A program made the translations under genes and the position numbers. A model generated the notes under the pieces. That model searched no databases, was not told the origin of the DNA, and saw only the letters and a list, made by a program, of their open reading frames with translations. A stretch of DNA of 64,000 nt from the NCBI RefSeq assembly GCF_044324785.1, contig NZ_CP172127.1, one strand, 5' to 3'. This stretch comes from Escherichia coli (lineage in GTDB: Bacteria; Pseudomonadota; Gammaproteobacteria; Enterobacterales; Enterobacteriaceae). Shown in pieces: positions 629 to 48,919 of the stretch; position 1 is the first letter of the stretch, and every line of letters begins with the position of its first letter.

Positions 629-970
629 TTAGTTACCACTCAGCGCAGGTTTGTTATCAATGTTGGTCAACACACCGCTACTGTTAAAGGTCAGCGTCAG
701 CGTTTGCTGCGTTACACCTTCATGACCTGGTTGCTGGCGGAAGACATAGAACCAGGTATTCGTACCAAATGGATCGGACATCAACGGTGTACCCAATGCG
801 TACGCAACTTGTTGTTGCGTCATGCCAACGCGTATTTTGGATACGTCGTTAGCGGTCAGATAATTCCCCTGGTTGATATCAGGACGGTAAACCACTCGCT
901 CCAGAGTGGAACAGCCTGCGGTCAACATCAATAGTACTGCTGCTGCAGCAGTCAGCGTTTTACAGCGCAT
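629..970 (-). CDS. bamE: Outer membrane protein assembly factor BamE (SmpA), lipoprotein
   Basis: 113 aa, signal peptide with lipobox LTAGCS, recognised sequence and position. Confidence 0.9.
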
Positions 971-1118: not shown

Positions 1119-2780
1119 TTACGCCGCAAGTAGTTCTTTCGCATTCGCCAGTGTGTTACGTGTGACTTCACTGCCACCAAGCAGGCGCGCCAGCTCTTGT
1201 AACCGCGCTTTTTTATCCAGGGATTGCATATGCGTTTCTGTCATCGCACCATCGGTTTCTTTGCTGACAAAATAGTGTTGATGACCACATCCCGCGACTT
1301 GTGGCAGGTGGGTAACACACATCACCTGAGTTGATTCGCCGAGTTGACGCAGCAGTTTGCCAACAACTGCCGCTGTTGGGCCGCTAATCCCTACATCCAC
1401 TTCATCAAAAATCAGTGCCGGGGTTTCCATTTTACGCGCCGTGATGACCTGAATTGCCAGTGCGATGCGTGACAATTCACCACCGGATGCGACTTTGGCA
1501 ATAGGCTGCATTGGCTGACCTGGGTTGGTGGTCACCCGAAACTCAATACGATCAGCGCCGTCAGCGCCCAGGTGATGCTCGTCAAATTTAACATCAATCG
1601 TAAACTGCCCATGCGGCATAGAGAGTGCATGCATACTGTCGGTGATCAGCTGTGCAAGTTCTTCTGCATAGTGCTGGCGTTGCAGGTGTAATGCGTGCGC
1701 GGTTTCCAGTGCCTGCTGATGATGTTTCGTTACCGCCAGCGCGAGCGTTTCTTGTGAGTCGGCCTGATCGTCCAGTTGCTGCTGTTCTTCCAGTAGCGAC
1801 TGGTAATACTGTGGCAATGCCTCAGGGCTGACGTGATGTTTACGTGCCAGCGAAATCTGTTTTGAGATGCGCTGTTCAAGTTCAAACAGTCGGTTGGGAT
1901 CGAGATCCAGACGATCGCAGTAGTGGCGCAGTTCATCGCTGGCTTCAGCAATCTGGATGGTAGCTTCTTCCAGCATATCAAGTACGCCGGACAGTTTGCT
2001 GTCCATGCCAATCAATTCGCTCACCAGTTGTTTAGCCGTGTAAAGCTGACTTTGCAGGTTTGCGTCTTCACCGTCGGCCATTACTGCCAATGCATTCTGG
2101 CTGGTAGTCAGCAATTGACCGCTGTTCGCCAGACGTTTGTACTCTTCGTCGATTTGCTCAAACTCTCCGGGCTGCGGATTAAATTCGTTAAGTTCTTTTA
2201 ATTGGTATTGCAGCAGTTCCGCACGGGCGGCGCGTTCCTGACTTAACTGTTGATGATGCGCGAGGTCACGGCAGCTTTGATGCCACAACTGATAACGTGC
2301 GGTCATTTCCTGGAGCAGAGAGGTTTCATTGGCATAGCCATCAAGCAGGAATTTTTGGTGCTCGGGTTTGGTGAGTAACTGATGGGCGTGCTGACCATGG
2401 ATCTGAATCAACAACTGGCCCAGTTCGCGAAGTTGTGACAGAGGAACAGCTGTACCGTTGATAAAACCTCGTGAGCGACCATCGCTACTGATTACGCGAC
2501 GAAGCAAACATTCATGACCGTCTTCAAGCTGGTTTTCTTCCAGCCAGCGCAGGGCCGCTGGCGTATCTTTCAGAGAAAAACGGGCGCACAGGTCGGCACG
2601 AGCAGCGCCGGTACGCACCATGTCGGCTTCAGCGCGACCACCGAGACAAAGGCCGAGGGCATCTATTGCAATAGATTTACCCGCGCCGGTCTCGCCAGTT
2701 ATTACGGTCATGCCGCTATGAAAATCAATCTCAAGCTCACGAACGATAGCAAAGTTGCTGATGGTCAGTTGTGCCAACAT
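1119..2780 (-). CDS. recN: DNA repair protein RecN
   Basis: 553 aa, Walker [12 protein letters not shown]-like coiled coil; LexA boxes upstream. Confidence 0.95.
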
Positions 2781-2806
2781 AGTTGTTTTCCTGTATGAAA
2801 AACCAT

Positions 2807-2848
2807 TACTGTTATTGTGTACAGTATAAACTGGTTTTATATACAGTA
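2807..2848 (-). promoter_or_regulatory. Two tandem LexA (SOS) boxes in the recN promoter; a third weaker half-site lies at 2791-2806
   Basis: TACTGTTATTGTGTACAGTA and AACTGGTTTTATATACAGTA match the CTGT-N8-ACAG consensus. Confidence 0.8.
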
Positions 2849-2865
2849 AAGAGGCTGGCGTAAAA

Positions 2866-3744
2866 TTAGAATAATTTTTTTGACCAGCCGAGCTTGGTGC
2901 TTAATGTATTGAAATAACTGTAATCTTTCGGATGAATCAGATTCAGATGGTAATCACAGCGACGAATCAGGACATCTTCGCCCTCCTGAATCGGCAGTGC
3001 TATCTGGCTGTCGCAACTGATTTCCAGGTCGTTACGGCGATGCGAAAAACGCAGACGGATCGTGCTGCTGCTGTTTATAACCAGTGGTCGTGCTGACAAC
3101 GTATGCGGGAACATGGGCACCAGGGTAATCGCATCCAGAGACGGTGTCAGAATCGGACCTCCCGCTGAGAGGGAATAAGCGGTGGAACCTGTTGGCGTCG
3201 AAATAATCAGGCCATCGGAACGCTGAGAAAACGCAAAGATCTCGTCGATATACACTTCGAACTCAATCATATGCGCCACTTTGCCAGGGTGAAGTACCAC
3301 TTCGTTAATCGCCGTGCTGATGCGTTTCTGGCAATCTTGCTGACAGACTTGCGCTTCCAGCAAAAAACGTTTTTCGCTGATGTAGTGGCCTTCCAGCACA
3401 TCGGCTAACTGTTGCTGGGCGTTATCGGGATCAAGGTCGGTCAGGAAACCCAGGTTGCCACGGTTGATTCCAATAACTTTAATATCGTAACGGGCGAGCG
3501 TGCGCGCCGCGCCCAGCATATTACCGTCGCCGCCAACGACAACCGCGAGATCAGCCTGTTGCCCAATCTCCGCGAGCGTGCCAGTTTTCACATTCTTCAG
3601 TTGCAGTTCGTGAGCGATTTGTTGCTCAACGATGACCTCGTAACCTTTTGTGCACAGCCAGCGGTAGAGCATTTCATGTGTTGTCAGTGCAGTGGGGTGC
3701 CGTGGGTGTCCCACAATGCCAATACACTTGAAATGATTATTCAT
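2866..3744 (-). CDS. nadK: NAD kinase
   Basis: 292 aa, GGDGN motif, recognised sequence. Confidence 0.95.
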
Positions 3745-3833: not shown

Positions 3834-4460
<627 letters not shown>

Positions 4461-16740: not shown

Positions 16741-16776
16741 AATAAAAAAGGCCCCCCGATTTGGGAGGCCTTATTG
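16741..16776 (-). promoter_or_regulatory. pheA transcription attenuator (terminator hairpin between pheL and pheA)
   Basis: Minus strand reads CAATAAGGCCTCCCAAATCGGGGGGCCTTTTTTATT. Confidence 0.85.
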
Positions 16777-16818
16777 TTCGTCTTCGCATTCTGTTTCACA
16801 CGACGAAACGCCTCCCAT

Positions 16819-16866
16819 TCAGGGGAAGGTAAAAAAGAATGCGAAGAAAAACGGTGTGTGTTTCAT
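16819..16866 (-). CDS. pheL: pheA leader peptide (15 aa, seven Phe codons)
   Basis: Minus strand ATGAAACACACACCGTTTTTCTTCGCATTCTTTTTTACCTTCCCCTGA = [15 protein letters not shown]. Confidence 0.9.
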   Translation of the reverse strand: [15 protein letters not shown]

Positions 16867-16920
16867 GTTTGTTTCCTTAAGTGACTTCAGTACAGTACCC
16901 GTACTGTTTTCACGCTGTCA

Positions 16921-16950
16921 ACAAAAAACGCGCCCGAAGGCGCGTTGGCG
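16921..16950 (-). terminator. raiA terminator
   Basis: ACGCGCCCGAAGGCGCGT hairpin followed by a T-run on the minus strand. Confidence 0.7.
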
Positions 16951-16969
16951 ATACACTCAATATAAAGGA

Positions 16970-17365
<396 letters not shown>

Positions 17366-17534
17366 TCAAAATGTGTGATGGAAATCTCATAATTTTGTCA
17401 CTTTTTGTCAACGAATCTTTTTTGTGAGAAATCGCAGGAAGAGATGTTTTTTTACTTGAGGAATATCTCAAAGCGAGCCATATTTGATGAGATCGATAGT
17501 GACTAAATCGCTTCAGTTTCACAACAAACAGAAT

Positions 17535-17567
17535 AAAAAAACGGCAGCTCAAGGGCTGCCGTTTTGT
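17535..17567 (-). terminator. bamD terminator
   Basis: CGGCAGCTCAAGGGCTGCCG hairpin flanked by A- and T-runs. Confidence 0.7.
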
Positions 17568-17581
17568 GTTTCAGGTTTCTG

Positions 17582-18319
17582 TTATGTATTGCTGCTGTTT
17601 GCGGCGATGATTTTCGCTACTTTTTCAGCTTGCGCATTCATTTGCATCTGACGGTATGCATTTTCCATCAGCGGCAGCGCATCACGCGTAGCCTGGGTAT
17701 CCGGGTAGTCGCGCAACATGCCTTCTACGCGGTTAACGACGGCAACCCATGCGCCACGTTCTGTATAGTACTCGGCCACGGAGTATTCATATTTCGCCAG
17801 ACGATCTTTCAGGAATACCAGACGTTTGGTGGCATCGGTGGTGTACTGACTGTTCGGATAGCCGCGCACCAGTTTGGAAAAGTCACTAAACGCAGCTCGT
17901 GCATGTTGAGGATCGCGATCGCTACGGTCAACGCCAAAGAACCCTTGCAGCGCACTGTCATCCAGCGCCATATTGGTCAGGCCACGCATGTACATGACAT
18001 AATCGATATTCGGATGGGTCGGGTTAAGGCGAATAAAACGATCGATGGCAGCCTGTGCTAACGGCAAATCGGCGTTTTTATAGTAGGCGTAGATGAGATC
18101 CAGCTGCACCTGCTGCGAATACGGACCAAACGGATAGCGATTATCTAACGCTTCCAGTTGCGTTATTGCCTGTCTCCAGTTACCGTCCTGCAGCTTTTGT
18201 TGTGCAGTCGCGTAAATTTCATTTGGCGGATTATCAGGTACTTCTTCCTTTGACCCCGAGCAACCCGCCAAAAACAGGCTTAGTGTGGCGGCTGCCACCA
18301 GATATTTCATGCGCGTCAT
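17582..18319 (-). CDS. bamD: Outer membrane protein assembly factor BamD (YfiO), TPR lipoprotein
   Basis: 245 aa, lipobox LAGCSG. Confidence 0.95.
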
Positions 18320-18453
18320 GACGTTTTGACTTTCCTCAAAATGTAATACGGGAGATTCTCTGTTCCTGCTCCCGGTTAAGACCAGCTACAATAGCACACT
18401 ATATTAAACGGCAAAGCCGTAAAACCCCAACGATAAACGAAGAAGCAGTATAT

Positions 18454-19434
18454 ATGGCACAACGAGTACAGCTCACTGCAACGGTGTCCGAAAACCAACT
18501 CGGTCAACGCTTAGATCAGGCTTTGGCCGAAATGTTCCCGGATTATTCACGTTCGCGAATAAAAGAATGGATCCTCGACCAGCGCGTGCTGGTTAACGGC
18601 AAAGTTTGTGATAAGCCGAAAGAAAAAGTATTGGGTGGCGAGCAGGTTGCCATCAACGCTGAGATTGAAGAAGAAGCGCGTTTTGAACCGCAGGATATCC
18701 CGCTGGATATTGTCTATGAAGATGAAGATATCATCGTCATTAATAAACCACGCGACCTGGTGGTACATCCTGGCGCGGGTAACCCGGATGGCACGGTACT
18801 GAATGCGTTGCTTCATTATTATCCGCCCATTGCCGATGTACCGCGTGCGGGCATCGTCCATCGTCTGGATAAAGACACCACCGGCCTGATGGTTGTGGCA
18901 AAAACCGTTCCGGCTCAGACGCGTTTAGTCGAATCTTTGCAACGGCGTGAAATTACTCGTGAGTACGAAGCGGTGGCGATTGGTCATATGACCGCAGGTG
19001 GCACGGTGGACGAGCCAATCAGTCGCCACCCGACCAAACGTACCCATATGGCGGTGCATCCGATGGGCAAACCAGCGGTGACTCACTATCGCATCATGGA
19101 ACACTTCCGTGTGCACACGCGTCTGCGGTTGCGTCTGGAAACTGGACGTACGCACCAGATCCGCGTGCATATGGCCCATATCACTCATCCGCTGGTGGGC
19201 GATCCGGTTTATGGTGGCCGTCCGCGTCCGCCAAAAGGTGCTTCGGAAGCGTTTATCTCCACGCTGCGTAAGTTTGACCGCCAGGCGCTTCATGCAACCA
19301 TGCTGCGTCTTTATCACCCGATCTCCGGTATCGAAATGGAATGGCATGCGCCTATTCCAGAAGATATGGTGGAGCTGATTGAGGTGATGCGCGCCGATTT
19401 CGAAGAGCATAAGGATGAAGTGGACTGGTTATGA
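18454..19434 (+). CDS. rluD: 23S rRNA pseudouridine(1911/1915/1917) synthase RluD
   Basis: 326 aa, S4 domain plus RluA-family catalytic HRLD motif. Confidence 0.95.
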   Translation: MAQRVQLTATVSENQLGQRLDQALAEMFPDYSRSRIKEWILDQRVLVNGKVCDKPKEKVLGGEQVAINAEIEEEARFEPQDIPLDIVYEDEDIIVINKPRDLVVHPGAGNPDGTVLNALLHYYPPIADVPRAGIVHRLDKDTTGLMVVAKTVPAQTRLVESLQRREITREYEAVAIGHMTAGGTVDEPISRHPTKRTHMAVHPMGKPAVTHYRIMEHFRVHTRLRLRLETGRTHQIRVHMAHITHPLVGDPVYGGRPRPPKGASEAFISTLRKFDRQALHATMLRLYHPISGIEMEWHAPIPEDMVELIEVMRADFEEHKDEVDWL

Positions 19435-20162
19435 GTAAGCTGATTGTCCCGCAGTGGCCGCTGCCAAAAGGTGTTGCGGCCTGTAGCTCTACCCGTATCG
19501 GCGGCGTGAGCTTGCCGCCTTACGACTCTCTCAACCTTGGCGCTCATTGTGGTGATAACCCGGATCACGTTGAGGAGAATCGCAAGCGACTTTTTGCTGC
19601 GGGCAATTTGCCTTCTAAACCGGTCTGGCTTGAGCAGGTACACGGCAAAGATGTGCTTAAGCTTACTGGTGAACCTTATGCCTCAAAACGAGCAGATGCC
19701 TCTTATAGCAATACGCCCGGCACGGTTTGCGCAGTGATGACTGCCGACTGCCTCCCCGTGCTGTTTTGCAATCGAGCGGGAACGGAAGTCGCCGCCGCTC
19801 ATGCTGGCTGGCGTGGACTGTGCGCTGGCGTGTTGGAGGAGACGGTTTCCTGTTTTGCTGATAATCCGGAAAATATTCTCGCCTGGTTAGGGCCGGCAAT
19901 TGGTCCACGCGCGTTTGAAGTGGGGGCGGAGGTTCGCGAGGCGTTTATGGCAGTAGACGCCAAAGCGAGTACAGCTTTCATTCAGCATGGTGATAAGTAT
20001 CTGGCGGATATTTATCTCCTTGCCCGGCAGCGTCTGGCGAACGTCGGTGTCGAACAAATTTTCGGCGGCAACCGTTGTACATATACGGAAAATGAGACTT
20101 TCTTCTCTTATCGTCGCGACAAGACCACTGGTCGTATGGCAAGTTTCATTTGGCTGATATAA
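19431..20162 (+). CDS. pgeF: Peptidoglycan editing factor PgeF (YfiH)
   Basis: 243 aa; start overlaps rluD stop by 4 bp. Confidence 0.9.
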   Translation: MSKLIVPQWPLPKGVAACSSTRIGGVSLPPYDSLNLGAHCGDNPDHVEENRKRLFAAGNLPSKPVWLEQVHGKDVLKLTGEPYASKRADASYSNTPGTVCAVMTADCLPVLFCNRAGTEVAAAHAGWRGLCAGVLEETVSCFADNPENILAWLGPAIGPRAFEVGAEVREAFMAVDAKASTAFIQHGDKYLADIYLLARQRLANVGVEQIFGGNRCTYTENETFFSYRRDKTTGRMASFIWLI

Positions 20163-20224
20163 CCTAAAGAATCAAGACGATCCGGTACGCGTGATTTTCT
20201 TTTCACATTAATCTGGTCAATAAC

Positions 20225-20253
20225 CTTGAATAATTGAGGGATGACCTCATTTA
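20225..20253 (+). promoter_or_regulatory. Sigma-32 heat-shock promoter of clpB
   Basis: CTTGAAT, 13 nt spacer, CCTCATTTA. Confidence 0.7.
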
Positions 20254-20291
20254 ATCTCCAGTAGCAACTTTGATCCGTTATGGGAGGAGTT

Positions 20292-22865
20292 ATGCGTCTG
20301 GATCGTCTTACTAATAAATTCCAGCTTGCTCTTGCCGATGCCCAATCACTTGCACTCGGGCACGACAACCAATTCATCGAACCACTTCATTTAATGAGCG
20401 CCCTGCTGAATCAGGAAGGGGGTTCGGTTAGTCCTTTATTAACATCCGCTGGCATTAATGCTGGCCAGTTGCGCACAGATATCAATCAGGCATTAAATCG
20501 TTTACCGCAGGTTGAAGGTACTGGTGGTGATGTCCAGCCATCACAGGATCTGGTGCGCGTTCTTAATCTTTGCGACAAGTTGGCGCAAAAACGTGGTGAT
20601 AACTTTATCTCGTCAGAACTGTTCGTTCTGGCGGCACTTGAGTCTCGCGGCACGCTGGCCGACATCCTGAAAGCAGCAGGGGCGACCACCGCCAACATTA
20701 CTCAAGCGATTGAACAAATGCGTGGAGGTGAAAGCGTGAACGATCAAGGTGCTGAAGACCAACGTCAGGCTTTGAAAAAATATACCATCGACCTTACCGA
20801 ACGAGCCGAACAAGGCAAACTCGATCCGGTGATTGGTCGTGATGAAGAAATTCGCCGTACCATTCAGGTGCTGCAACGTCGTACTAAAAATAACCCGGTA
20901 CTGATTGGTGAACCAGGCGTCGGTAAAACTGCCATCGTTGAAGGTCTGGCGCAGCGTATCATCAACGGCGAAGTGCCGGAAGGGTTGAAAGGCCGCCGCG
21001 TACTGGCGCTGGATATGGGCGCGCTGGTGGCTGGGGCGAAATATCGCGGTGAGTTTGAAGAACGTTTAAAAGGCGTACTTAACGATCTTGCTAAACAGGA
21101 AGGCAACGTCATCCTGTTTATCGACGAATTACATACCATGGTCGGCGCGGGTAAAGCCGATGGCGCAATGGACGCCGGAAACATGCTGAAACCGGCGCTG
21201 GCGCGTGGTGAATTGCACTGCGTAGGTGCCACGACGCTTGACGAATATCGCCAGTACATCGAAAAAGATGCTGCGCTGGAGCGTCGTTTCCAGAAAGTGT
21301 TTGTTGCCGAGCCTTCTGTTGAAGACACCATTGCTATTCTGCGTGGCTTAAAAGAACGTTACGAACTGCACCACCATGTGCAAATTACTGACCCGGCAAT
21401 TGTTGCAGCTGCGACGTTGTCTCATCGCTACATTGCTGACCGTCAGCTGCCGGATAAAGCCATCGACCTGATCGATGAAGCAGCATCCAGCATTCGTATG
21501 CAGATTGACTCAAAACCAGAAGAACTCGACCGACTCGATCGTCGTATCATCCAGCTCAAACTGGAACAACAGGCGTTAATGAAAGAGTCTGATGAAGCCA
21601 GTAAAAAACGCCTGGATATGCTCAACGAAGAACTGAGCGACAAAGAACGTCAGTACTCCGAGTTAGAAGAAGAGTGGAAAGCAGAGAAAGCATCGCTTTC
21701 TGGTACACAGACCATTAAAGCGGAACTGGAACAGGCGAAAATCGCTATTGAACAGGCTCGCCGTGTGGGTGACCTGGCGCGGATGTCTGAACTGCAATAC
21801 GGCAAAATCCCGGAACTGGAAAAGCAACTGGAAGCCGCAACGCAGCTCGAAGGCAAAACTATGCGTCTGTTGCGTAATAAAGTGACCGACGCCGAAATTG
21901 CTGAAGTGCTGGCGCGTTGGACGGGGATTCCGGTTTCTCGCATGATGGAAAGCGAGCGCGAAAAACTGCTGCGTATGGAGCAAGAGCTGCACCATCGCGT
22001 TATTGGTCAGAACGAAGCGGTTGATGCGGTATCTAACGCTATTCGTCGTAGCCGTGCGGGGCTGGCGGATCCAAATCGCCCGATTGGTTCATTCCTGTTC
22101 CTCGGCCCAACGGGTGTGGGGAAAACTGAGCTTTGTAAGGCGCTGGCGAACTTTATGTTTGATAGCGACGAGGCGATGGTCCGTATCGATATGTCCGAGT
22201 TTATGGAGAAACACTCGGTGTCTCGTCTGGTTGGTGCGCCTCCGGGATATGTCGGTTATGAAGAAGGTGGCTACCTGACCGAAGCTGTGCGTCGTCGTCC
22301 GTATTCCGTCATCCTGCTGGATGAAGTGGAAAAAGCGCATCCGGATGTCTTCAACATTCTGTTGCAGGTACTGGATGATGGGCGTCTGACTGACGGGCAG
22401 GGGAGAACGGTCGACTTCCGTAATACGGTTGTCATTATGACCTCTAACCTCGGTTCCGATTTGATTCAGGAACGCTTCGGTGAACTGGATTATGCGCACA
22501 TGAAAGAGCTGGTGCTCGGTGTGGTAAGCCATAACTTCCGTCCGGAATTCATTAACCGTATCGATGAAGTGGTGGTCTTCCATCCGCTGGGTGAACAGCA
22601 CATTGCGTCGATTGCGCAGATTCAGTTGAAACGTCTGTATAAACGTCTGGAAGAACGTGGTTATGAAATCCACATTTCTGACGAGGCGCTGAAACTGCTG
22701 AGCGAGAACGGTTACGATCCGGTCTATGGTGCACGTCCTCTGAAACGTGCTATCCAGCAGCAGATCGAAAACCCGCTGGCACAGCAAATACTGTCTGGTG
22801 AATTGGTTCCGGGTAAAGTTATTCGCCTGGAAGTTAATGAAGACCGGATTGTCGCCGTCCAGTAA
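20292..22865 (+). CDS. clpB: Disaggregase chaperone ClpB (857 aa); internal GTG at 20736 is the ClpB-80 start
   Basis: [18 protein letters not shown]...; two AAA+ modules with Walker A GEPGVGKT and GPTGVGKT; the ORF-track start at 20280 is 4 codons too long. Confidence 0.95.
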
Positions 22866-22869
22866 TGAT

Positions 22870-22899
22870 AAAACGAGCCCTTCGGGGCTCGTTTTTGTC
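22870..22899 (+). terminator. clpB terminator
   Basis: AAAACGAGCCCTTCGGGGCTCGTTTTTGTC. Confidence 0.85.
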
Positions 22900-22979
22900 T
22901 ATAAATTAGACGGAAAAGACTATGTTTAAGATGTTTTGCCTGAAAAATGAGCGAACGATAAAGTTTTTATATTTTTCGC

Positions 22980-23007
22980 TTGTCAGGCCGGAATAACTCC
23001 CTATAAT
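22980..23007 (+). promoter_or_regulatory. rrnG P1 promoter, with A/T-rich UP element immediately upstream
   Basis: TTGTCA, 16 nt spacer, TATAAT; upstream AAAGTTTTTATATTTTTCGC. Confidence 0.85.
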
Positions 23008-23098
23008 GCGCCACCACTGACACGGAACAACGGCAAACACGCCGCCGGGTCAGCGGAGTTCTCCTGAGAATTCCGGCAGAGAAAGCAAAAATAAATGC

Positions 23099-23126
23099 TT
23101 GACTCTGTAGCGGGAAAGCGTATTAT
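23099..23126 (+). promoter_or_regulatory. rrnG P2 promoter
   Basis: TTGACT, 16 nt spacer, TATTAT. Confidence 0.85.
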
Positions 23127-23163
23127 GCACACCCCGCGCCGCTGAGAAAAAGCGAAGCGGCAC

Positions 23164-23176
23164 TGCTCTTTAACAA
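23164..23176 (+). promoter_or_regulatory. rrn leader boxA antitermination element
   Basis: TGCTCTTTAACAA. Confidence 0.8.
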
Positions 23177-23307
23177 TTTATCAGACAATCTGTGTGGGCA
23201 CTCGAAGATACGGATTCTTAACGTCGCAAGACGAAAAATGAATACCAAGTCTCAAGAGTGAACACGTAATTCATTACGAAGTTTAATTCTTTGAGCATCA
23301 AACTTTT

Positions 23308-24849
<1,542 letters not shown>

Positions 24850-24934
24850 CCTTAAAGAAGCGTTCTTTGTAGTGCTCACACAGATTGTCTGATAGAAAGT
24901 GAAAAGCAAGGCGTCTTGCGAAGCAGACTGATAC

Positions 24935-25010
24935 GTCCCCTTCGTCTAGAGGCCCAGGACACCGCCCTTTCACGGCGGTAACAGGGGTTCGAATCCCCTA
25001 GGGGACGCCA
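24935..25010 (+). tRNA. gltW: tRNA-Glu (UUC) in the 16S-23S spacer
   Basis: GTCCCCTTCGTCTAGAGGCCCAGGACACCGCCCTTTCACGGCGGTAACAGGGGTTCGAATCCCCTAGGGGACGCCA. Confidence 0.95.
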
Positions 25011-25194
25011 CTTGCTGGTTTGTGAGTGAAAGTCACCTGCCTTGATATCTCAAAACTCATCTTCGGGTGATGTTTGAGATATTTGCTCTTTAAAAATCTG
25101 GATCAAGCTGAAAATTGAAACACTGAACAACGAAAGTTGTTCGTGAGTCTCTCAAATTTTCGCAACTCTGAAGTGAAACATCTTCGGGTTGTGA

Positions 25195-28099
<2,905 letters not shown>

Positions 28100-28191
28100 A
28101 CAACGCCGAAGATGTTTTGGCGGATGAGAGAAGATTTTCAGCCTGATACAGATTAAATCAGAACGCAGAAGCGGTCTGATAAAACAGAATT

Positions 28192-28311
28192 TGCCTGGCG
28201 GCCGTAGCGCGGTGGTCCCACCTGACCCCATGCCGAACTCAGAAGTGAAACGCCGTAGCGCCGATGGTAGTGTGGGGTCTCCCCATGCGAGAGTAGGGAA
28301 CTGCCAGGCAT
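28192..28311 (+). rRNA. rrfG: 5S ribosomal RNA (rrnG operon)
   Basis: TGCCTGGCGGCCGTAGCGCGGTGG...GGGAACTGCCAGGCAT, 120 nt. Confidence 0.97.
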
Positions 28312-28323
28312 CAAATTAAGCAG

Positions 28324-28351
28324 AAGGCCATCCTGACGGATGGCCTTTTTG
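28324..28351 (+). terminator. rrnG operon terminator
   Basis: AAGGCCATCCTGACGGATGGCCTTTTTG. Confidence 0.85.
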
Positions 28352-28354
28352 CGC

Positions 28355-28410
28355 TGGTGCGGAATAAATGCCGGATGCGACGCTGGCGCGTCTTACCCGA
28401 CCTACGAAGA
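28355..28410. repeat. REP (repetitive extragenic palindromic) element
   Basis: GCCGGATGCGACGCTGGCGCGTCTTACCCGACCTACG, the typical REP signature. Confidence 0.7.
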
Positions 28411-28674
28411 GTTGCGGCGAGTGTAGATATCCGCATTATCCCCCCACATACGCCAGATTCAGCAACGGATACGGTTTCCCCAAATTGCCCACTTCCATAC
28501 ATCCTCCTTACCAGAAATCTATCCTTAAGCTCCTTAATAACCATTTTCCTGCTAACTAAATTCATGGTTAAGGTTGCATAATGATACGCAACAAATGTAT
28601 AACATTTTCTTTACCAAAAAAATAAACAACAGCGACCGACAAAAGCATCGGATTACGGCAGGAGACATAATGGC

Positions 28675-29973
28675 ATGGCTGAAAGTACTGTAACGGCAGA
28701 CAGCAAACTGACAAGTAGTGATACTCGTCGCCGCATTTGGGCGATTGTGGGGGCCTCTTCAGGTAATCTGGTCGAGTGGTTCGATTTCTATGTCTACTCG
28801 TTCTGTTCACTCTACTTTGCCCACATCTTCTTCCCTTCCGGGAACACGACGACTCAACTACTACAAACAGCAGGTGTTTTTGCTGCGGGATTTCTGATGC
28901 GCCCAATAGGCGGTTGGCTATTTGGCCGCATAGCCGATAAACATGGTCGCAAAAAATCGATGCTGTTATCGGTGTGTATGATGTGTTTCGGCTCACTGGT
29001 TATCGCCTGTTTGCCAGGCTACGAAACAATCGGTACCTGGGCTCCGGCATTATTGCTTCTTGCTCGTTTATTCCAGGGATTATCCGTTGGCGGAGAATAT
29101 GGCACCAGCGCCACCTATATGAGTGAAGTTGCCGTTGAAGGGCGCAAAGGTTTTTACGCATCATTTCAGTATGTGACGTTGATCGGCGGGCAACTGCTAG
29201 CTCTACTGGTTGTCGTGGTTTTACAACACACCATGGAAGACGCTGCACTCAGAGAGTGGGGATGGCGTATTCCTTTCGCGTTAGGAGCTGTGTTAGCTGT
29301 TGTGGCGTTGTGGTTACGTCGTCAGTTAGATGAAACTTCACAACAAGAAACACGCGCTTTAAAAGAAGCTGGATCTCTGAAAGGATTATGGCGCAATTGC
29401 CGTGCATTCATCATGGTTCTCGGTTTTACCGCTGCGGGCTCCCTTTGTTTCTATACCTTCACCACTTATATGCAGAAGTATCTGGTAAATACTGCGGGAA
29501 TGCATGCCAACGTGGCGAGTGGCATTATGACAGCCGCATTGTTTGTTTATATGCTCATTCAGCCACTTTTTGGTGCCTTGTCAGATAAGATTGGTCGCCG
29601 AACTTCGATGCTTTGCTTCGGTTCTCTGGCTGCTGTTTTTACCGTTCCGATACTCTCAGCATTACAGAATGTATCTTCTCCTTATGCCGCTTTTGGTCTG
29701 GTGATGTGCGCCCTGCTGATCGTGAGTTTTTATACTTCAATCAGTGGAATACTGAAGGCTGAAATGTTCCCGGCCCAGGTTCGCGCATTAGGTGTTGGTC
29801 TGTCGTATGCCGTCGCTAATGCGATATTTGGTGGCTCAGCAGAGTATGTAGCGTTATCGTTAAAATCGGTAGGAATGGAAACATCTTTCTTCTGGTATGT
29901 CACCTTTATGGCAGTGATTGCATTCCTGGTATCACTAACATTGCACCGTAAAGGAAAAGGGATGCGTCTTTAG
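28675..29973 (+). CDS. kgtP: Alpha-ketoglutarate:H+ symporter KgtP (MFS)
   Basis: 432 aa [22 protein letters not shown]...; 12 predicted transmembrane segments. Confidence 0.95.
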
Positions 29974-30293
29974 TTACGGGTCAGTTGCCAGACGGTATAG
30001 CCGGTGCTTGCACCGGCGACATCCCAGGCCAAATCCTTCCAGCTCCAGCCGCTCCCTTCGGGGCGGCTATCCCAAAGCTCTTTTGACGCGCCCAGCCCAA
30101 CAGAGAACATCAGCCCGAAAGTGGCACTGCGATCGCGACTCATCCCCTGATGCTGTGCATATTCATTTCCGGCGGCGGAAAGCATCGCCGAGGCGATAAA
30201 GTGTTGAGCTTTATCCTGCCCGCTCCAGCTATCGTTAGCCATATGGCTGCATCCAGAAAGTAACAATAGCGAACAGACAAAAAGAATACGCAA
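29970..30293 (-). CDS. yfiM: Lipoprotein YfiM (107 aa), TTG start
   Basis: Lipobox LLSGCS; GGAGG Shine-Dalgarno 6 nt upstream of the TTG at 30293; the ORF-track start at 30314 is an over-extension; 3' end overlaps kgtP stop. Confidence 0.75.
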
Positions 30294-30338
30294 AACGTGG
30301 CCTCCAAAAAACAAACCCCGTACAGGACGGGGTTGTGA

Positions 30339-31694
30339 TTACAGGATGCGGCTAATTAATCGGTCGATGCGGATACGGCGCAAACGACGGATGAGTTTAC
30401 GAACCTTCACCGGATAATCGGCAATACTTTGCAGATCGCGATAGTGCTTAACGATGGTGGTATGCTCGCGGATCAGCTCCAGTTCTTTCTCTCGCTGTGG
30501 TGCAAGCTCCAGTTGCGGATCGTGGATCAAAATGGCGTTTTCCAGATCCAGACGCCAGGCGCGCGGGTTCAGGTTATTACCGGTGATCAACATCCACTTA
30601 TCATCAACCCACATCCCTTTCAGGTGATAGGTGTTGTCGTCATCTTTCCATAACCGAACCACTAACTGGTCAGTGTTGACGTAATACTGTAAACGGCTCA
30701 GGAAACGACGCAGATTGATCTCATAGAGATAAGGCAATGCGCCAATTATCTTGAAAGGTTCATCTTCCGGAATGTAGAAGTCATTCGCGGTTTTATCACC
30801 AACAATAATTTCGACCTTTTTCCCTTCGCGCAGCAACTGGATGATATTGCGCACAAGGATTGCTGGCAGGTTGAAGTATGGCGTACAGATGGTTAGTTTC
30901 TGCTCGGCACAAGGCATAAGGTGGAAAATGGTCTTGTTTAACAGACTCGATTTCCCCAGTCCCACTAGCGGCGTTACGGAAAGCTGATCGTTGTCGGCAT
31001 CGCCCTGGAAATGATAAGCGGCATCACGCAGCTCCTGGCGGAACAGGCGAATGTCGTTCTTGATTTCCGGGCTTTTTGGCCGATTAACATCATCCAGACG
31101 ATTAACGCCGCGGCCATTCATAATATTCTGTGTAACCCATTCAAACATAATGTCTGACATCTTACGGTTACGGATAAGATGATAACGGTCGTAGCGATAT
31201 TTATCGTGCTGATGCAGGTAAACATCGTTCAGGCTGGCACCGCTATAAAGTACGCTATCGTCGATGATAAAGCCTTTAAAGTGCAGAACACCAAGGGCTT
31301 CACGGGTATTGATTGGAACGCCATAAACCGGAACATCTACGCCCGGATTTTCCTGCGCCATGCGGCAGTACCAGTCAGCGTTAGTGTTAGATGCCGCAGC
31401 GCCAATGCGTCCACGTTGTGCACGATGCCAGTCGACCAGCACCCGCACATCCAGTTCCGGACGCTGCCTTTTAGCCTCATACAACGCGTTCAGAATGCCT
31501 TTGCCACCGTCATCCTGTTCGAGATACAGGGCGACAATGCAAATGCGCTGCTTCGCGCTGGCTATTTTTTCCAGCAGCGTCTCCCGGAAGTCGGCGGGAG
31601 CGTAAAAGAAATCGACATCATCAACTGATTGAGAAATCTTGGGTAGTTGGGCAAGGTGTTGTTGATGTTTATTACGCTTAAATTTTGACAACAT
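30339..31694 (-). CDS. pssA: CDP-diacylglycerol-serine O-phosphatidyltransferase (phosphatidylserine synthase), PLD family
   Basis: 451 aa MLSKFKRNKHQQHLAQLPKISQSV... Confidence 0.95.
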   Translation of the reverse strand: MLSKFKRNKHQQHLAQLPKISQSVDDVDFFYAPADFRETLLEKIASAKQRICIVALYLEQDDGGKGILNALYEAKRQRPELDVRVLVDWHRAQRGRIGAAASNTNADWYCRMAQENPGVDVPVYGVPINTREALGVLHFKGFIIDDSVLYSGASLNDVYLHQHDKYRYDRYHLIRNRKMSDIMFEWVTQNIMNGRGVNRLDDVNRPKSPEIKNDIRLFRQELRDAAYHFQGDADNDQLSVTPLVGLGKSSLLNKTIFHLMPCAEQKLTICTPYFNLPAILVRNIIQLLREGKKVEIIVGDKTANDFYIPEDEPFKIIGALPYLYEINLRRFLSRLQYYVNTDQLVVRLWKDDDNTYHLKGMWVDDKWMLITGNNLNPRAWRLDLENAILIHDPQLELAPQREKELELIREHTTIVKHYRDLQSIADYPVKVRKLIRRLRRIRIDRLISRIL

Positions 31695-31807
31695 CACAGT
31701 GCATTTCTTCTCTGTTCATTGAAGGGTCCTCTGTGCAATGCAGACGACATAAGCGGGCAATAATAACACCAGTCCCGATTAAGTGGTCAACATTTCCAGT
31801 ACCTTAC

Positions 31808-34468
31808 TCATGATTCCTCGCGCTGGGCAAGATTTAGCGTAAGCCCAACGATCCCCTCTTCGAGCTGGATATCAACGTTAAACCCGAGCTTGCGGGCCAG
31901 CGCCACCATGCCACGATTGTTTGGCATCGTAATACCATTCAGACGTTGTAGTCCGTGATCTCGCGTATAGGTAATCAACTTTTCCATTAAGCGTCGACCT
32001 AAGCCTAACCCTTTGAGATCCGAGCGAACCAGCACGGCAAATTCGGCATCGATGTTATCAGGGTCGGAGATCGCACGCGTGACGCCGAGGATCTCTTCCG
32101 TTTGATCAATACGTCGTACCGCTACAAATGCCATTTCCCGATCGTAGTCGATCTGCGTCATGTTGGCTAAATCTTCATGGGTAAATTCGTTGATCTCGCT
32201 AAAGTAGCGGTAATAAAGATCTTCTTTGGTGACTCGCGAAATGAACTGCTGAAGTTGTGGCTCATCTTCTGGCAAAATCGGGCGGAACAAGCAGCGTTCA
32301 CCGTTTTTCAATTCTACCCACTCTTCCAGCTGATGTGGATAAGGGCGCACTGCCAGCCGGCTCTCGTTATCGCCTTCAAACGGCGCGATATCCAGCGTGA
32401 CATCCAGCGCGGTAAATTCACTGCCAGAAGCCAGCAAAGGATGAATATCCAGACGTTGAATTTCCGGACAATCGACAATCAAGTTGGAAACCTGTACCAG
32501 AAGCTGGCTCAAGCCTGCAACATCCAATGGGCGTAGCGCACTGCGCGCACGAATCTTTTTACTTTTGATCCCCTGAATAACCAGATAGCGGGCCAGGTTC
32601 ATGTTCAGCGGCGGCAGTGCGACGACGGCTTGATCTTCAGGACGCCACTCCACACCGCCTTCACCCAGCATGATTAACGGCCCGAAAACCGGATCGTGCT
32701 CAACCACAACCCGCAACTCCTGAGCGCCAGCACGGTTAGCCATACTTTGCACCAACAGGCCGTGGACCCGCGCCTGCGGCCAGGCCATTTTTACGCGATC
32801 GAAAATAGCGTTTGCCGCTTGCTGGACTTCATTAGCTGTACGCAGGTAGAGCATTACGCCCTGAACTTCCGATTTATGTGGAATATCCGGCGAGCGCAAT
32901 TTCAGTGCCACCGGATAGCCAATCTGTTCGGCAATATGTACCGCTTCGGTGCTATCACTGGCAATCCAGGTAGGGAGAGTATTCATACCATACGCTTGCA
33001 GGATGGGCTGAACTTCATGGGTATCGAGCGACGTAGCCCCTTCGGCAATCGCCTGTTGCAACAGAAGATGCGCTTCTGCGGTATTGGAAGTCAGATTGCT
33101 GGGCAACGCCGGCGTTTCGCGTAGTTGCTTCTGATTACGCCGGTACTCGACCATATGCATAAAAGCAGTGATGGTTCCTTCCGGAGTACGGTAAGTCGGC
33201 AGCCCGGCTTCGCTGAATAAACGTCGTGCCTCTTGCGAGGAGTGCTCGCCGCACCAGTTCGTCAGCAAAGAGACATATTTGCTGCGGGGATGATGCTTTA
33301 CCGCTTCAATTAATACTTGCGCGCTTTCTGTTGCGGGAGCAGCGGCGCTGGGCGAATGAATAACCATCAGCGCATCAAAATCCTGGCTGTGGAGCAGAAT
33401 GTCCAGCGTTTTGACATAATGCTCGCTGCTGGCGTCATCGCGCAGATCGAGCGGGTTAGAGATTGCCACATGCCCTGGCAGTGCATCGCGCAGTTTCTGG
33501 CAGGTTTCTTCGCTTAGCGTTGCCAGCTTGCCATTACGTGACCATAAGGCATCCAGCGCCAGCGCGGCAGGCGCAGCACCGTTGCTGATAATCATCAATC
33601 GGTCGCCACGCAGCGGGCGCATATGGCTAAGGGTTTCCACCGCCGAAAACAGTTCGTGGGTGTCCTGTACCCGCAACAAACCGGCACGCTGAATAGCTGC
33701 ATCCCACGCCGGATCCATTCCTGCCGTGGTGTTCAACAGACGTTGAGCCGCCGGGCTACGTCCGCTTTTAATCACCAGAATCGGTTTATTGCGCGAGGCA
33801 CTACGGGCTGCCGAAACAAAGCGCCTCGCGTCGCTTAACTGTTCGAGATAGAGCAGGATGGCGCTGGTTTTACTGTCGCGCGCCAGATAGTCGAGCAATT
33901 CATCAACGTCGATATCCAGGCTGTCGCCGAGCGCAATAAAGTAGGAAAAGCCCATCTCACGCTGTTGCGCCCAGTCGAGGATGGTGTTGGAGACAGCAGC
34001 CGATTGCGAAATAAACGCCAGCTTGCCGCGTTTAATCGGCACAGGCGAAAAGCTGGCATTCAGACCTTGCCAGGGAGCCAGTAAGCCCAGACTGTTTGGT
34101 CCTAGCAGGCGCATGTTATGGCGCAGGGCGCAGGCGCGGAGATCTTCGTGTTGCGATGCCGGGGCGGAAAGAATAATGCAGGTTTTACAGCCTTTCTCGC
34201 CGAGCTCTTCCAGAAGAGCAAGATTACGGCTGGCATTGGTACATAAAACCGCAAGGTCGGGTGTAAAGGGCAAGCTGGCAATATCCGGCCAGGCCAACAC
34301 ACCCAACACCGCTTTCCAGGCTGGCGTCACCGGGAGTACCGGTCCGTTAAAGCCTCCCGCCAGCAGGTTACGCATCATCAGGTAACCTGCGCGATTGGGT
34401 TTCATCGACGCGCCAATTACCGCTATCGATTTTGGTCGCAGTAGTGCTTCCAGTCCTCGCTGACTCAT
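31808..34468 (-). CDS. patZ: Protein lysine acetyltransferase PatZ/Pka (YfiQ): CoA-binding, NDP-forming acyl-CoA synthetase-like and GNAT domains
   Basis: 886 aa, recognised sequence. Confidence 0.95.
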   Translation of the reverse strand: MSQRGLEALLRPKSIAVIGASMKPNRAGYLMMRNLLAGGFNGPVLPVTPAWKAVLGVLAWPDIASLPFTPDLAVLCTNASRNLALLEELGEKGCKTCIILSAPASQHEDLRACALRHNMRLLGPNSLGLLAPWQGLNASFSPVPIKRGKLAFISQSAAVSNTILDWAQQREMGFSYFIALGDSLDIDVDELLDYLARDSKTSAILLYLEQLSDARRFVSAARSASRNKPILVIKSGRSPAAQRLLNTTAGMDPAWDAAIQRAGLLRVQDTHELFSAVETLSHMRPLRGDRLMIISNGAAPAALALDALWSRNGKLATLSEETCQKLRDALPGHVAISNPLDLRDDASSEHYVKTLDILLHSQDFDALMVIHSPSAAAPATESAQVLIEAVKHHPRSKYVSLLTNWCGEHSSQEARRLFSEAGLPTYRTPEGTITAFMHMVEYRRNQKQLRETPALPSNLTSNTAEAHLLLQQAIAEGATSLDTHEVQPILQAYGMNTLPTWIASDSTEAVHIAEQIGYPVALKLRSPDIPHKSEVQGVMLYLRTANEVQQAANAIFDRVKMAWPQARVHGLLVQSMANRAGAQELRVVVEHDPVFGPLIMLGEGGVEWRPEDQAVVALPPLNMNLARYLVIQGIKSKKIRARSALRPLDVAGLSQLLVQVSNLIVDCPEIQRLDIHPLLASGSEFTALDVTLDIAPFEGDNESRLAVRPYPHQLEEWVELKNGERCLFRPILPEDEPQLQQFISRVTKEDLYYRYFSEINEFTHEDLANMTQIDYDREMAFVAVRRIDQTEEILGVTRAISDPDNIDAEFAVLVRSDLKGLGLGRRLMEKLITYTRDHGLQRLNGITMPNNRGMVALARKLGFNVDIQLEEGIVGLTLNLAQREES

Positions 34469-34499
34469 ACCGGTCTCCCGCAGAAGTGACCGAATGATT

Positions 34500-35198
34500 T
34501 TAAACGCTTTCTAACTGTTCTGCTGTGATGCTACCCAGATGTTGCGTTTTTCCTGCCAGATAGCGTGTTTTAAAGCGGGTAAAATGCTCGCCTAACCCTG
34601 CTGCCGCCCCGGTATCGCCGGCCATATCTAACAGTGCGATGGCTACCTCGGCAGTACAATATTGGCCTTCAGCCTGGGCTTCACGCAGGCGATAGGCAGA
34701 AAGCCGGGAAAGATCGACGGAAATGACGGGAAGATTATCCAGATACGGACTTTTACGAAACATTTTGCGAGCTTCCGGCCAGGTACCATCGAGCATGATA
34801 AACAGCGGTGGCTTACCGGCAGGTGGTGTGAAGATCACTTCCCGTTGCTCATCAGCATACGAGGCGGGAAAGACCACCATTGGCTGATAATCCGGGTTTT
34901 GTACCAGATCCAGCAAATCTTGCGAGGGTTCGGTACGCGACCATTGAAACGCAACGGTATCAGGCAAAATATCAGCAATCAGACGCCCGGTATTACTGGG
35001 CTTCATTGGCTCGGTGTCGAACATCAGCAAACAGAAGCGACTTTTTGCTTGTGCTGGGGTAATTGTCGAACAGAGACATAATTTCTCTGGCAAAAGACAG
35101 CGTTGGCAGCGAAGAACGCGATTACCGCGGGCAAGAAAAGGACGTGTTGCGCGCGCAATACGCTCGGCGCGTAACTGAAGAACAGCGTTTTCGGTCAT
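34500..35198 (-). CDS. yfiP: DTW-domain tRNA-uridine aminocarboxypropyltransferase YfiP (TapT)
   Basis: Start at the internal Met (MTENAVLQLRAERIARAT...) giving 232 aa; the ORF-track start at 35249 is an over-extension; DTW motif present. Confidence 0.85.
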   Translation of the reverse strand: MTENAVLQLRAERIARATRPFLARGNRVLRCQRCLLPEKLCLCSTITPAQAKSRFCLLMFDTEPMKPSNTGRLIADILPDTVAFQWSRTEPSQDLLDLVQNPDYQPMVVFPASYADEQREVIFTPPAGKPPLFIMLDGTWPEARKMFRKSPYLDNLPVISVDLSRLSAYRLREAQAEGQYCTAEVAIALLDMAGDTGAAAGLGEHFTRFKTRYLAGKTQHLGSITAEQLESV

Positions 35199-35235
35199 AA
35201 GAGAGCGTCGAAAAAACGCCATTGTCGCAGAGGAG

Positions 35236-35262
35236 AAAACGGGGCACAAGATGCGCCCCGGT
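35236..35262 (-). terminator. trxC terminator
   Basis: CGGGGCACAAGATGCGCCCCG hairpin with a T-run on the minus strand. Confidence 0.6.
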
Positions 35263-35266
35263 AAGA

Positions 35267-35686
35267 TTAAAGCGATTCGTTCAGCCAGCTATCGAACGGC
35301 GCTTTCGGTACTGCGCCATTAAGCATGTCGACAACCTGACCGTTTTTGAAAATCATGATCGTCGGTATACTACGAATTCCAAAGCGACTGCTCAATTCAC
35401 GTTCAGCTTCGGTATTCACTTTCACAAAGCGCACTTTACCGCTACGCTCTTGCGCGACATCTTCAAAAATTGGTGCGAAATTACGGCAGGGGCCGCACCA
35501 CGGTGCCCAGAAGTCGATCACCACTGGTAGATCATCTTTCAGCAATTTGTCGAGCGTTTCACCGGTCGCATTAATCACCTCTCCGTCAAACAAGTCGTGA
35601 CCGCAGCGTCCGCATTTTGCCGCATCTTCGATCCGATCGTCGGGAATGCGATTGATGGCCTGACAATGGGTACAAACGGTATTCAT
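35267..35686 (-). CDS. trxC: Thioredoxin 2 (N-terminal zinc-finger CxxC pairs plus WCGPC active site)
   Basis: 139 aa [30 protein letters not shown]...WAPWCGPC. Confidence 0.95.
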
Positions 35687-35892
35687 AACTAACCTCGGGA
35701 TGAGTAAGGAGACTTATCGGCAACGACGCCGGTATGTTTCTAATATGTTACATATTATCGGGGACATTGTTCCAGACAACAATCTGTTTTATTCAATAGG
35801 TATGATAGTCGCAGGCTTTGGTACGAAATCATGGCGAACCGCGCGGACTTCGGGTAATCTGCGCGCTTCGCGCAGCGCTGGTGGAGAAAAGC

Positions 35893-36930
35893 ATGAACGA
35901 TGAAATGAAAGGTAAAAGCGGCAAGGTCAAAGTGATGTATGTCCGCAGTGATGATGATTCTGATAAACGTACCCACAACCCGCGTACCGGGAAAGGGGGC
36001 GGGCGTCCAGGAAAATCTCGTGCTGACGGTGGCCGTCGCCCCGCCCGCGATGACAAACAGAGTCAGCCCCGTGACCGCAAGTGGGAAGATTCGCCGTGGC
36101 GCACGGTTTCCCGCGCGCCGGGTGATGAGACGCCGGAAAAGGCCGATCACGGTGGCATCAGTGGTAAAAGTTTTATTGATCCAGAAGTTTTGCGTCGTCA
36201 GCGTGCGGAAGAAACCCGCGTCTACGGCGAAAATGCATGTCAGGCACTGTTCCAGAGCCGTCCGGAAGCGATTGTTCGCGCCTGGTTTATCCAGAGCGTA
36301 ACGCCACGTTTTAAAGAAGCCTTGCGCTGGATGGCGGCAAACCGCAAAGCGTACCATGTGGTGGATGAAGCGGAATTGACAAAAGCGTCAGGCACGGAAC
36401 ATCACGGCGGCGTTTGCTTCCTGATCAAAAAGCGTAATGGCACAACTGTGCAGCAGTGGGTAAGCCAGGCAGGTGCGCAGGATTGCGTTCTGGCACTGGA
36501 AAACGAATCTAACCCGCATAACCTGGGGAGCATGATGCGCAGCTGCGCGCACTTCGGCGTGAAAGGCGTTGTGGTGCAGGATGCGGCACTGCTGGAGTCG
36601 GGTGCGGCTATCCGTACCGCAGAAGGCGGCGCAGAGCACGTTCAGCCGATTACTGGCGACAACATTGTTAACGTGCTGGATGATTTCCGTCAGGCGGGTT
36701 ACACCGTAGTGACAACTTCCAGCGAGCAGGGGAAACCGCTGTTCAAAACCAGTCTGCCAGCGAAAATGGTACTGGTGCTGGGTCAGGAATATGAAGGGTT
36801 ACCGGATGCCGCACGCGATCCAAACGATCTGCGCGTGAAGATTGACGGTACTGGCAACGTTGCCGGGCTAAATATCTCTGTCGCAACTGGCGTTTTGCTT
36901 GGTGAATGGTGGCGTCAGAATAAAGCCTGA
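35893..36930 (+). CDS. yfiF: Putative SpoU/TrmH-family RNA methyltransferase YfiF
   Basis: Start at [22 protein letters not shown] giving 345 aa; Lys/Arg-rich N-terminal extension and SpoU methylase domain. Confidence 0.85.
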
Positions 36931-36977
36931 TAAATCAGCCGGGTGGCAACGCTGCCATCCGGCGTTTTCCTGCAAAT

Positions 36978-37667
36978 TTACTCACTCTCTGCCGGTAATA
37001 CTGGCATCCAGTCAATCGGTTTCTCGCCACGTTGTTCCAGCCACTGATTTGCCAGCACAAAATGGTTGCAGCCAAAGAACCCGCGATGCGCAGAAAGCGG
37101 TGATGGATGCGGCGCTTTCAGTACGTGATGGCGTTGCTTATCAATAATCGCCCCTTTCTTTTGCGCATGTGAGCCCCACAACAAAAACACCACGCCTTCG
37201 CGATGCTGGTTAATCAGGCTGATGACTTTATCGGTGAAGGTCTCCCAGCCGAGGCTGGCGTGGGAATGCGCCTGACCTGCGCGAACCGTCAACACAGTAT
37301 TGAGTAGCAGAACGCCCTGACGCGCCCAGCTTTCAAGATAACCATGATTAGGGCGGGTGAAACCGGGAATAGTATTTTCCAGCTCTTTATACATATTCAG
37401 CAGTGACGGCGGTGTCGCAATGCCGGGGCGAACGGAAAATGCCAGACCATGCGCCTGTCCCGGTCCGTGATAAGGATCCTGGCCGAGAATCACCACTTTA
37501 ACGTCACCCAACTCTGTAAAGCGGAACGCGTTAAAAACATCCTTTTGTGGCGGATAGATAGTGACGCCGGACTGCCGCTCGCTGGCGACGGTCTGTAGGG
37601 TATTAAGAAAATAGGGTTGTTGCTTCTCTTCAGCCAGCACGTCATGCCAGGTTAATTCGTTTGCCAT
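36978..37667 (-). CDS. ung: Uracil-DNA glycosylase
   Basis: 229 aa [20 protein letters not shown]...[13 protein letters not shown]. Confidence 0.95.
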
Positions 37668-37850
37668 CTCGCTCTCCCGCGAATCTTCAATCCGCCTAGC
37701 TTAACTGCTTCTTTCTACAGAACAAAATCATGCTCATTTTTTAGACTTAAACGAGTGCAAAAAAATGTAAATTGGTAAAATTTCACACCTGCATAAGTTG
37801 ATGTAAAACAATAAAATCCATTTGCGACCATACTTGATGTGTGGTTTTTA

Positions 37851-37864
37851 TTGATTTAAATCAA
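37851..37864 (+). promoter_or_regulatory. FNR binding site in the grcA promoter
   Basis: TTGATTTAAATCAA, perfect match to TTGAT-N4-ATCAA, about 110 bp upstream of the grcA start. Confidence 0.8.
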
Positions 37865-37971
37865 AGATTCAAGGGTGTTTGAGGAGTATATATACACTCA
37901 AGCAACAATGGTTTTACCAATTGGCCGCGACAGGCTGAACAAATCAAATAATTTTGCCGGGGAGGCATCAC

Positions 37972-38355: not shown

Positions 38356-38376
38356 GGCTTAAGTAGCAAGTTACTA

Positions 38377-38408: not shown

Positions 38409-38409
38409 G

Positions 38410-41479: not shown

Positions 41480-43833
<2,354 letters not shown>

Positions 43834-47119: not shown

Positions 47120-48919
<1,800 letters not shown>

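Follow-up and report, generated by a model that had tools for sequence, protein, structure and literature searches.

We analysed a stretch of 64,000 nucleotides of Escherichia coli DNA (RefSeq assembly GCF_044324785.1, contig NZ_CP172127.1), referred to below as the window, and examined the gap between recN and its upstream neighbour nadK. The genes around this gap were assigned using NCBIfam models (Table 1). As recN lies on the minus strand, ‘upstream’ corresponds to higher window coordinates and the motifs were read on the minus strand. The nadK-recN gap is 85 bp long, as in K-12 MG1655, and the intergenic region, which bears the operators described below, has a GC content of 32%. A single base in this region differs between the window and MG1655 (A/G, 5 nt ahead of the ATG), outside the boxes. 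A 351-bp segment around the operators is 100% identical to that of E. coli strain N3 and was found in 5425/5426 complete E. coli genomes, annotated as nadK / recN every time. Elsewhere in the window, Rfam placed an rrn operon and several further RNA elements (Table 1), and all of the elements at 16742..63052 are expected for that region of the E. coli chromosome.

Table 1. Coordinates of genes, promoter elements, LexA boxes and other features in the window.
Feature	Coordinates	Strand	Sequence, evidence or remark
bamE	629..970	minus	NCBIfam equivalog
recN	1119..2780	minus	553 aa; NCBIfam equivalog NF008121 RecN, 1067.5 bits, full length
Shine-Dalgarno AGGA	2792..2789	minus	8 nt ahead of recN ATG, in box 3 right arm
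LexA box 3 (weak, nearest ATG)	2808..2789	minus	TAATGGTTTTTCATACAGGA; core ATGG-N8-ACAG
LexA box 2	2826..2807	minus	TACTGTACACAATAACAGTA; core CTGT-N8-ACAG, exact match at 2809..2824
Predicted -10 hexamer TATACT	2828..2823	minus	16-nt spacer from -35
LexA box 1 (promoter-distal)	2848..2829	minus	TACTGTATATAAAACCAGTT; core CTGT-N8-CCAG
Predicted -35 hexamer TTTACT	2850..2845	minus	sigma-70-like promoter match
nadK (NAD kinase)	2866..3744	minus	NCBIfam NF002893, 568.6 bits; same-strand neighbour upstream of recN
grpE	3867..4460	plus	NCBIfam equivalog
Phe leader	16742..16867	minus	Rfam
RyfD	20173..20311		Rfam
16S rRNA (rrn operon)	23308..24849		Rfam
tRNA (rrn operon)	24935..25007		Rfam
23S rRNA (rrn operon)	25195..28099		Rfam
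5S rRNA (rrn operon)	28194..28309		Rfam
CTGT-N8-ACAG match near 5S rRNA	28686..28705		TACTGTAACGGCAGACAGCA; exact; 8.5 bits
eamB	38410..38997	minus	cysteine/O-acetylserine exporter
Fourth-best matrix match	39008..39027		TACTGTCTACCAAAACAGAG; 12.2 bits; exact CTGT-N8-ACAG at 39010..39025
LysR-family regulator gene	39055..39981	plus	
AsrC	46407..47238	minus	Rfam
rncO	50022..50236		Rfam
OhsC	53649..53725	minus	Rfam
GlmY	62905..63052		Rfam

On the recN strand, the sequence over the operator block reads ...CTCTTTACTGTATATAAAACCAGTTTATACTGTACACAATAACAGTAATGGTTTTTCATACAGGAAAACAACTATG. Three contiguous boxes fit in 60 bp, with the block ending 8 nt ahead of the recN ATG (2780) and boxes 2 and 3 having 2 bp in common. 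The palindromic arms CTG-N10-CAG, invariant in the gamma-proteobacterial LexA operator (consensus TACTG(TA)5CAGTA), are present in boxes 1 and 2, while one arm deviates in box 3 (ATG-N10-CAG). An earlier note, made from the letters alone, had placed LexA boxes at 2791-2848, which agrees with the outer edges of the box cores. Its description of two strong CTGT-N8-ACAG boxes is exact for box 2 but not for box 1, the core of which is CTGT-N8-CCAG. The third element, which it had taken for a weaker half-site, turned out to be a full 20-bp weak box that overlaps the ribosome-binding site.

From 16 published E. coli LexA boxes (PMC3009722 Table 4), with recN deliberately excluded, we derived a symmetrised weight matrix for LexA. 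Scanning the full 64-kb window with it, we found that boxes 1, 2 and 3 scored 25.7, 17.8 and 12.6 bits, ranking 1, 2 and 3, respectively. Leave-one-out scores of the 16 known sites extended from 4.9 to 28.4 bits (dinG, 13.4; dinB, 13.7; polB, 4.9), and all three boxes score inside this range of established sites. Box 1 matches the best known sites, box 2 is typical, and box 3 is at the low edge, under dinG and dinB and over polB. Although it has one mismatch to CTGT-N8-ACAG, box 1 has the top score of the three, because the CCAG arm is frequent among real LexA sites. Heterology indices (HIs) for boxes 1, 2 and 3, computed from the 16-site set, were 2.1, 5.9 and 14.4 unsymmetrised and 4.1, 9.2 and 12.2 symmetrised; these are not directly comparable with published HIs, which vary by source (recN 3.5, PMC11228462).

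As a chance control, we prepared 300 dinucleotide-preserving shuffles of the window. Matches of at least 17.8 bits averaged 0.02 per window, 25.7 bits was reached in 0/300 shuffles, and a pair of matches scoring 12 bits or more and no more than 60 bp apart was likewise found in 0/300. A single match of at least 12 bits arose in 35% of shuffles, and box 3 alone is therefore non-significant window-wide. For the 85-bp region, a local AT-rich model predicts about 0.003 matches of at least 12 bits and 1.7e-4 of at least 17.8 bits. It is only its position that makes box 3 convincing.

Two further sites in the window carry an exact CTGT-N8-ACAG core. The fourth-best matrix match is situated in the 57 bp that separate eamB from the divergently oriented gene for a LysR-family regulator (Table 1); it is probably unrelated to LexA and may be the LysR regulator’s own dyad. 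The other follows the 5S rRNA gene at a distance of a few hundred bases; it scores low, which points to a match by chance.

The predicted TTTACT/TATACT hexamers form the only sigma-70-like promoter match in 2600..3000, from which transcription would start near 2816. Relative to this inferred start, box 1 extends from about -32 to -13, box 2 from about -10 to +10 and box 3 from about +9 to +28. Box 1 spans the -35/-10 spacer and overlaps both predicted hexamers, and box 2 overlaps the predicted -10 hexamer together with the inferred transcription start. Both hexamers end in TACT, the beginning of the LexA left arm TACTGT. Since each hexamer is fused to the left arm of a box (the -35 hexamer to box 1, the -10 hexamer to box 2), the boxes stand 22 bp apart just as the hexamers do. 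In an alignment of Enterobacterales sequences among the matches listed, two T’s ahead of box 1 and TA ahead of box 2 are invariant; these hexamer bases lie outside the LexA 20-mers, and their invariance supports the promoter assignment.

On these grounds, 2789..2848 is almost certainly the E. coli recN promoter operator region, in which three LexA dimer sites would stand side by side on the minus strand. Matrix scores, conservation and the literature agree with the view in the earlier note that the sites are the recN LexA (SOS) operators in tandem. The counter-evidence concerns box 3 alone, and there is none against boxes 1 and 2. The RefSeq annotation of K-12 and other strains carries no operator or protein-binding features at the recN site, and the comparison with known recN operators was therefore made against published motif tables; the recN LexA motif printed in PMC3009722 Tables 4 and 7 is exactly the 20-mer of box 1.

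In undamaged cells, LexA on boxes 1 and 2 would block RNA polymerase at both hexamers and at the start site, occlusion of RNA polymerase by bound LexA being the standard mechanism of SOS repression (PMC6590174). The weak box 3, which adjoins box 2 and would sit in the early transcribed leader over the ribosome-binding site, probably either raises occupancy or serves as a block further downstream. Following DNA damage, RecA-stimulated self-cleavage of LexA would empty the sites, leading to strong recN transcription. ClpXP, acting via a C-terminal LAA-type tail, would additionally hold the RecN protein low. RecN is degraded by ClpXP through C-terminal signals (PMC10714372), and the protein encoded in the window ends in the ssrA-tag-like sequence ...AKELLAA (translation, window 1119..1178, minus strand). 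This tail is consistent with ClpXP degradation, which would form a second layer confining RecN to damaged cells.

We compared the 62-bp block (2789..2850) between E. coli genomes and found it to be identical in 5357/5425, with 68/5425 differing. In divergent strains, the polymorphisms were found outside the boxes or in box spacers, leaving the CTG/CAG arms unchanged. In SI-NP020 (L123), the single differing genome inspected, each of the first two boxes has one change, TACTGTA[T>C] for box 1 and TACTGT[A>G] for box 2. The two substitutions affect position 7 of their box, a spacer position adjoining a conserved arm.

Beyond E. coli, species-representative genomes were scanned with a DNA pattern from the back-translated RecN N-terminus, yielding at least 120 gamma-proteobacterial loci. 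Among the matches listed, the RecN Walker A motif was present in all but two of the loci with readable sequence. Box 1 was nearly invariant, scoring at least 14 bits in 76/80 Enterobacterales species among the matches listed. In the same listed set, a second box 22 bp downstream of box 1 reached at least 9 bits in 71/80 and at least 14 bits in 60/80 species, while a third site, at the expected offset, scored 8 bits or more in 59/80. The distances from box to ATG were 48, 26 and 8 bp in most of the Enterobacterales loci listed. When 71 of the listed Enterobacterales sequences were stacked in an alignment, CTTTACTG and TATACTGT were invariant. Outside this order and again among the matches listed, Aeromonas recN has the enterobacterial box layout, and 16/20 Pasteurellales loci have one or more boxes scoring 14 bits or above, with two such boxes in 4/20.

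Erwiniaceae depart from the E. coli pattern. Among the matches listed, the right arm of their box 2 has decayed to CCAT, with a median score of 9.7 bits against 19.9 elsewhere, while their box 3 is a canonical CTGT-N8-ACAG site with a median of 11.5 bits and a maximum of 18.3, against 8.4 elsewhere. Loci with this reversed pattern, from Erwinia, Pantoea and Mixta, include L023, L034, L039, L040, L044, L059, L080, L085, L087 and L104. The strengths of boxes 2 and 3 in Erwiniaceae are the reverse of those in E. coli, in what looks like operator turnover in a fixed scaffold. The shift is seen at the level of the clade only and may represent one evolutionary event. A general compensation between boxes 2 and 3 was also considered across the Enterobacterales; the correlation was weak and non-significant (rho -0.21, p = 0.06, 80 loci among the matches listed).

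The three-box recN operator is already known and has been described since 1987; it is a textbook locus, real and conserved, and the finding is therefore ordinary. PMC10714372 and PMC7440846 attribute LexA binding at recN to Rostas et al. 1987, and the K-12 recN operators (b2616) that they describe from that source are the same locus in another strain, with no difference of substance. Three boxes at 8, 26 and 48 bp from the ATG, the third of them weak (HI 12.97), are also present at Salmonella enterica recN (PMC8072944 Table 1), although the sequences and relative strengths differ (HIs 8.82, 7.72 and 12.97 at 48, 26 and 8 bp, PMC8072944). Unlike in Salmonella enterica, box 1 is clearly the strongest in E. 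coli.

LexA binding is cooperative at colicin operators. At colicin promoters, two SOS boxes overlap (Lloubes et al. 1991, as cited in PMC7440846), resembling the 2-bp overlap of recN boxes 2 and 3, but these promoters belong to plasmid-borne toxin genes. recN, lexA and the colicin genes are named together as multi-operator SOS promoters (PMC7440846). The lexA double operator is similar to that of recN in having more than one LexA box in one SOS promoter; it differs in having two boxes rather than three, the second of which adds little (PMC7440846). In the literature examined, we found no recN counterpart to the dissection of individual operators carried out for lexA.

How far the number of boxes accounts for the regulation of recN is a separate question. 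PMC10714372 (with reference to Rostas et al. 1987 and Courcelle et al. 2001) and PMC7440846 give E. coli recN three SOS boxes and tight LexA regulation. After AZT, recN showed 19-fold induction and 36-fold lexA dependence, the latter surpassed only by umuD (50), umuC (40), dinI (39) and tisB (38) (PMC11228462 Table 1). In Salmonella, recN is the third most induced SOS gene (39-fold, PMC8072944 Table 1), and it is strongly induced by UV (PMC3009722). By LexA dependence and the rank in Salmonella, it is reasonable to count recN among the most tightly repressed SOS genes, as had been claimed. That the tandem layout is the cause of this tightness is plausible but not secure, and the earlier note is therefore right as to identity and only partly supported as to cause.

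The multiplicity of boxes might instead be mainly a by-product of promoter hexamers built from LexA half-sites (TTTACTGT and TATACTGT), providing redundancy and not cooperative extra-tightness, with the single high-affinity box 1 responsible for most of the repression. We do not favour this explanation but regard it as a serious possibility. It fits the equality of box spacing and hexamer spacing, and it fits the published comparisons between SOS genes: those that match or surpass recN in LexA dependence are listed with a single LexA-box HI (tisB 1.8, umuD 2.1 and dinI 4.8, against 3.5 for recN; PMC11228462 Table 1), a double operator had a negligible effect relative to a single one at the lexA promoter (PMC7440846), and recN was timed as a ‘middle’ promoter whereas umuD and sulA were ‘late’ (PMC5999292). 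Pasteurellales recN, which among the matches listed mostly has one strong box, points the same way. What it does not account for is the retention of both arms of box 2 (CTGT and ACAG) in 58/71 Enterobacterales sequences among the matches listed, although the -10 hexamer needs the left arm only; LexA binding itself is thus shown to be under selection. Moreover, the Erwiniaceae in which box 2 has decayed have a stronger box 3, which suggests that the promoter retains more than one operator.

Box 3 raises a different doubt, namely that only boxes 1 and 2 function and that the conservation of box 3 reflects the recN ribosome-binding site and 5′ leader. We consider this rather unlikely, and box 3 is probably functional, judging from its sequence and conservation. 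Its right arm ACAGGA, which is conserved in the Enterobacterales alignment (among the matches listed), includes the Shine-Dalgarno AGGA. As the best-conserved arm of box 3 coincides with the Shine-Dalgarno sequence, translation may account for part of the conservation. The left core ATGG is without the invariant C of CTG. The score of box 3 is also modest, being 12.6 bits here and only 8.4 in most Enterobacteriaceae among the matches listed, while window-wide 35% of shuffles yield a match of 12 bits or more and the 12.2-bit site beside eamB is probably not a LexA site. In Salmonella, the box was missed by FIMO (PMC8072944).

We therefore turn to what a ribosome-binding site would produce at this position. 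For 135 other genes with a Shine-Dalgarno sequence at the equal position, the 20-mer there was scored with a cut-off of 8 bits. This score was reached in 1/135 of the control genes and in 59/80 recN loci among the matches listed, which weakens an account of box 3 based on the Shine-Dalgarno sequence only. Furthermore, the left-arm TG, like the right-arm ACAG, is retained in 62/71 Enterobacterales among the matches listed; the flanks of the TG vary (ATGG, GTGT, ATGT and CTGT), and the core xTGx-N8-ACAG persists from one family to another. Among the matches listed, Erwinia, Pantoea and Mangrovibacter have a canonical CTGT-N8-ACAG at this site, scoring 13.5 to 18.3 bits. A third SOS box is also counted in the literature (PMC10714372, PMC8072944).

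A broader proposal is that selection maintains at least two operators at the recN promoter while the pair in use varies, through turnover within the 60-bp scaffold, and that the downstream boxes might in addition serve as a roadblock to transcription from nadK. On the sequence comparison, we regard this combination as unlikely.

Still more doubtful is the idea that boxes 2 and 3 are partly a LexA roadblock insulating recN from constitutive nadK read-through. No terminator-like site was detected in 2600..3000, an interval that includes the stretch from the nadK stop (2866) to the recN promoter. Among the matches listed, nadK directly precedes recN, in the same orientation, in 105/120 gamma-proteobacterial loci, with a gap of typically about 80-100 bp. 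The lack of a terminator, together with this conserved adjacency, makes nadK read-through into recN conceivable. However, the adjacency is equally conserved in Pasteurellales, mostly with a single strong box, indicating that the number of boxes does not track the arrangement, and we found no published report of the idea. Whether box number goes with nadK adjacency was examined among the matches listed; no association emerged, because the adjacency is near-universal.

Finally, the suggestion that the motif cluster is a chance product of an AT-rich intergenic region can be rejected: the region is 32% GC, and loose matches to CTGT-N8-ACAG, with one mismatch allowed, are common (29 in the window, 18 expected), but the recN boxes are the top three matrix matches of the window, none of the 300 shuffles gave such a cluster, the local AT-rich model predicts next to no matches of at least 17.8 bits in the region, and the sites are kept across a whole bacterial order.

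The recN operators are a classic, often-cited example of a multi-operator SOS promoter, and finding them again has little discovery value. Their main use here is as a positive control, in which a reading from sequence only located genuine regulatory sites with an error of no more than a few bases. The comparative work adds two small, descriptive points on the recN promoter in the Enterobacterales, namely that the 22-bp spacing of the boxes is the predicted -35/-10 spacing, and that the conservation of the third box exceeds what the ribosome-binding site would explain.
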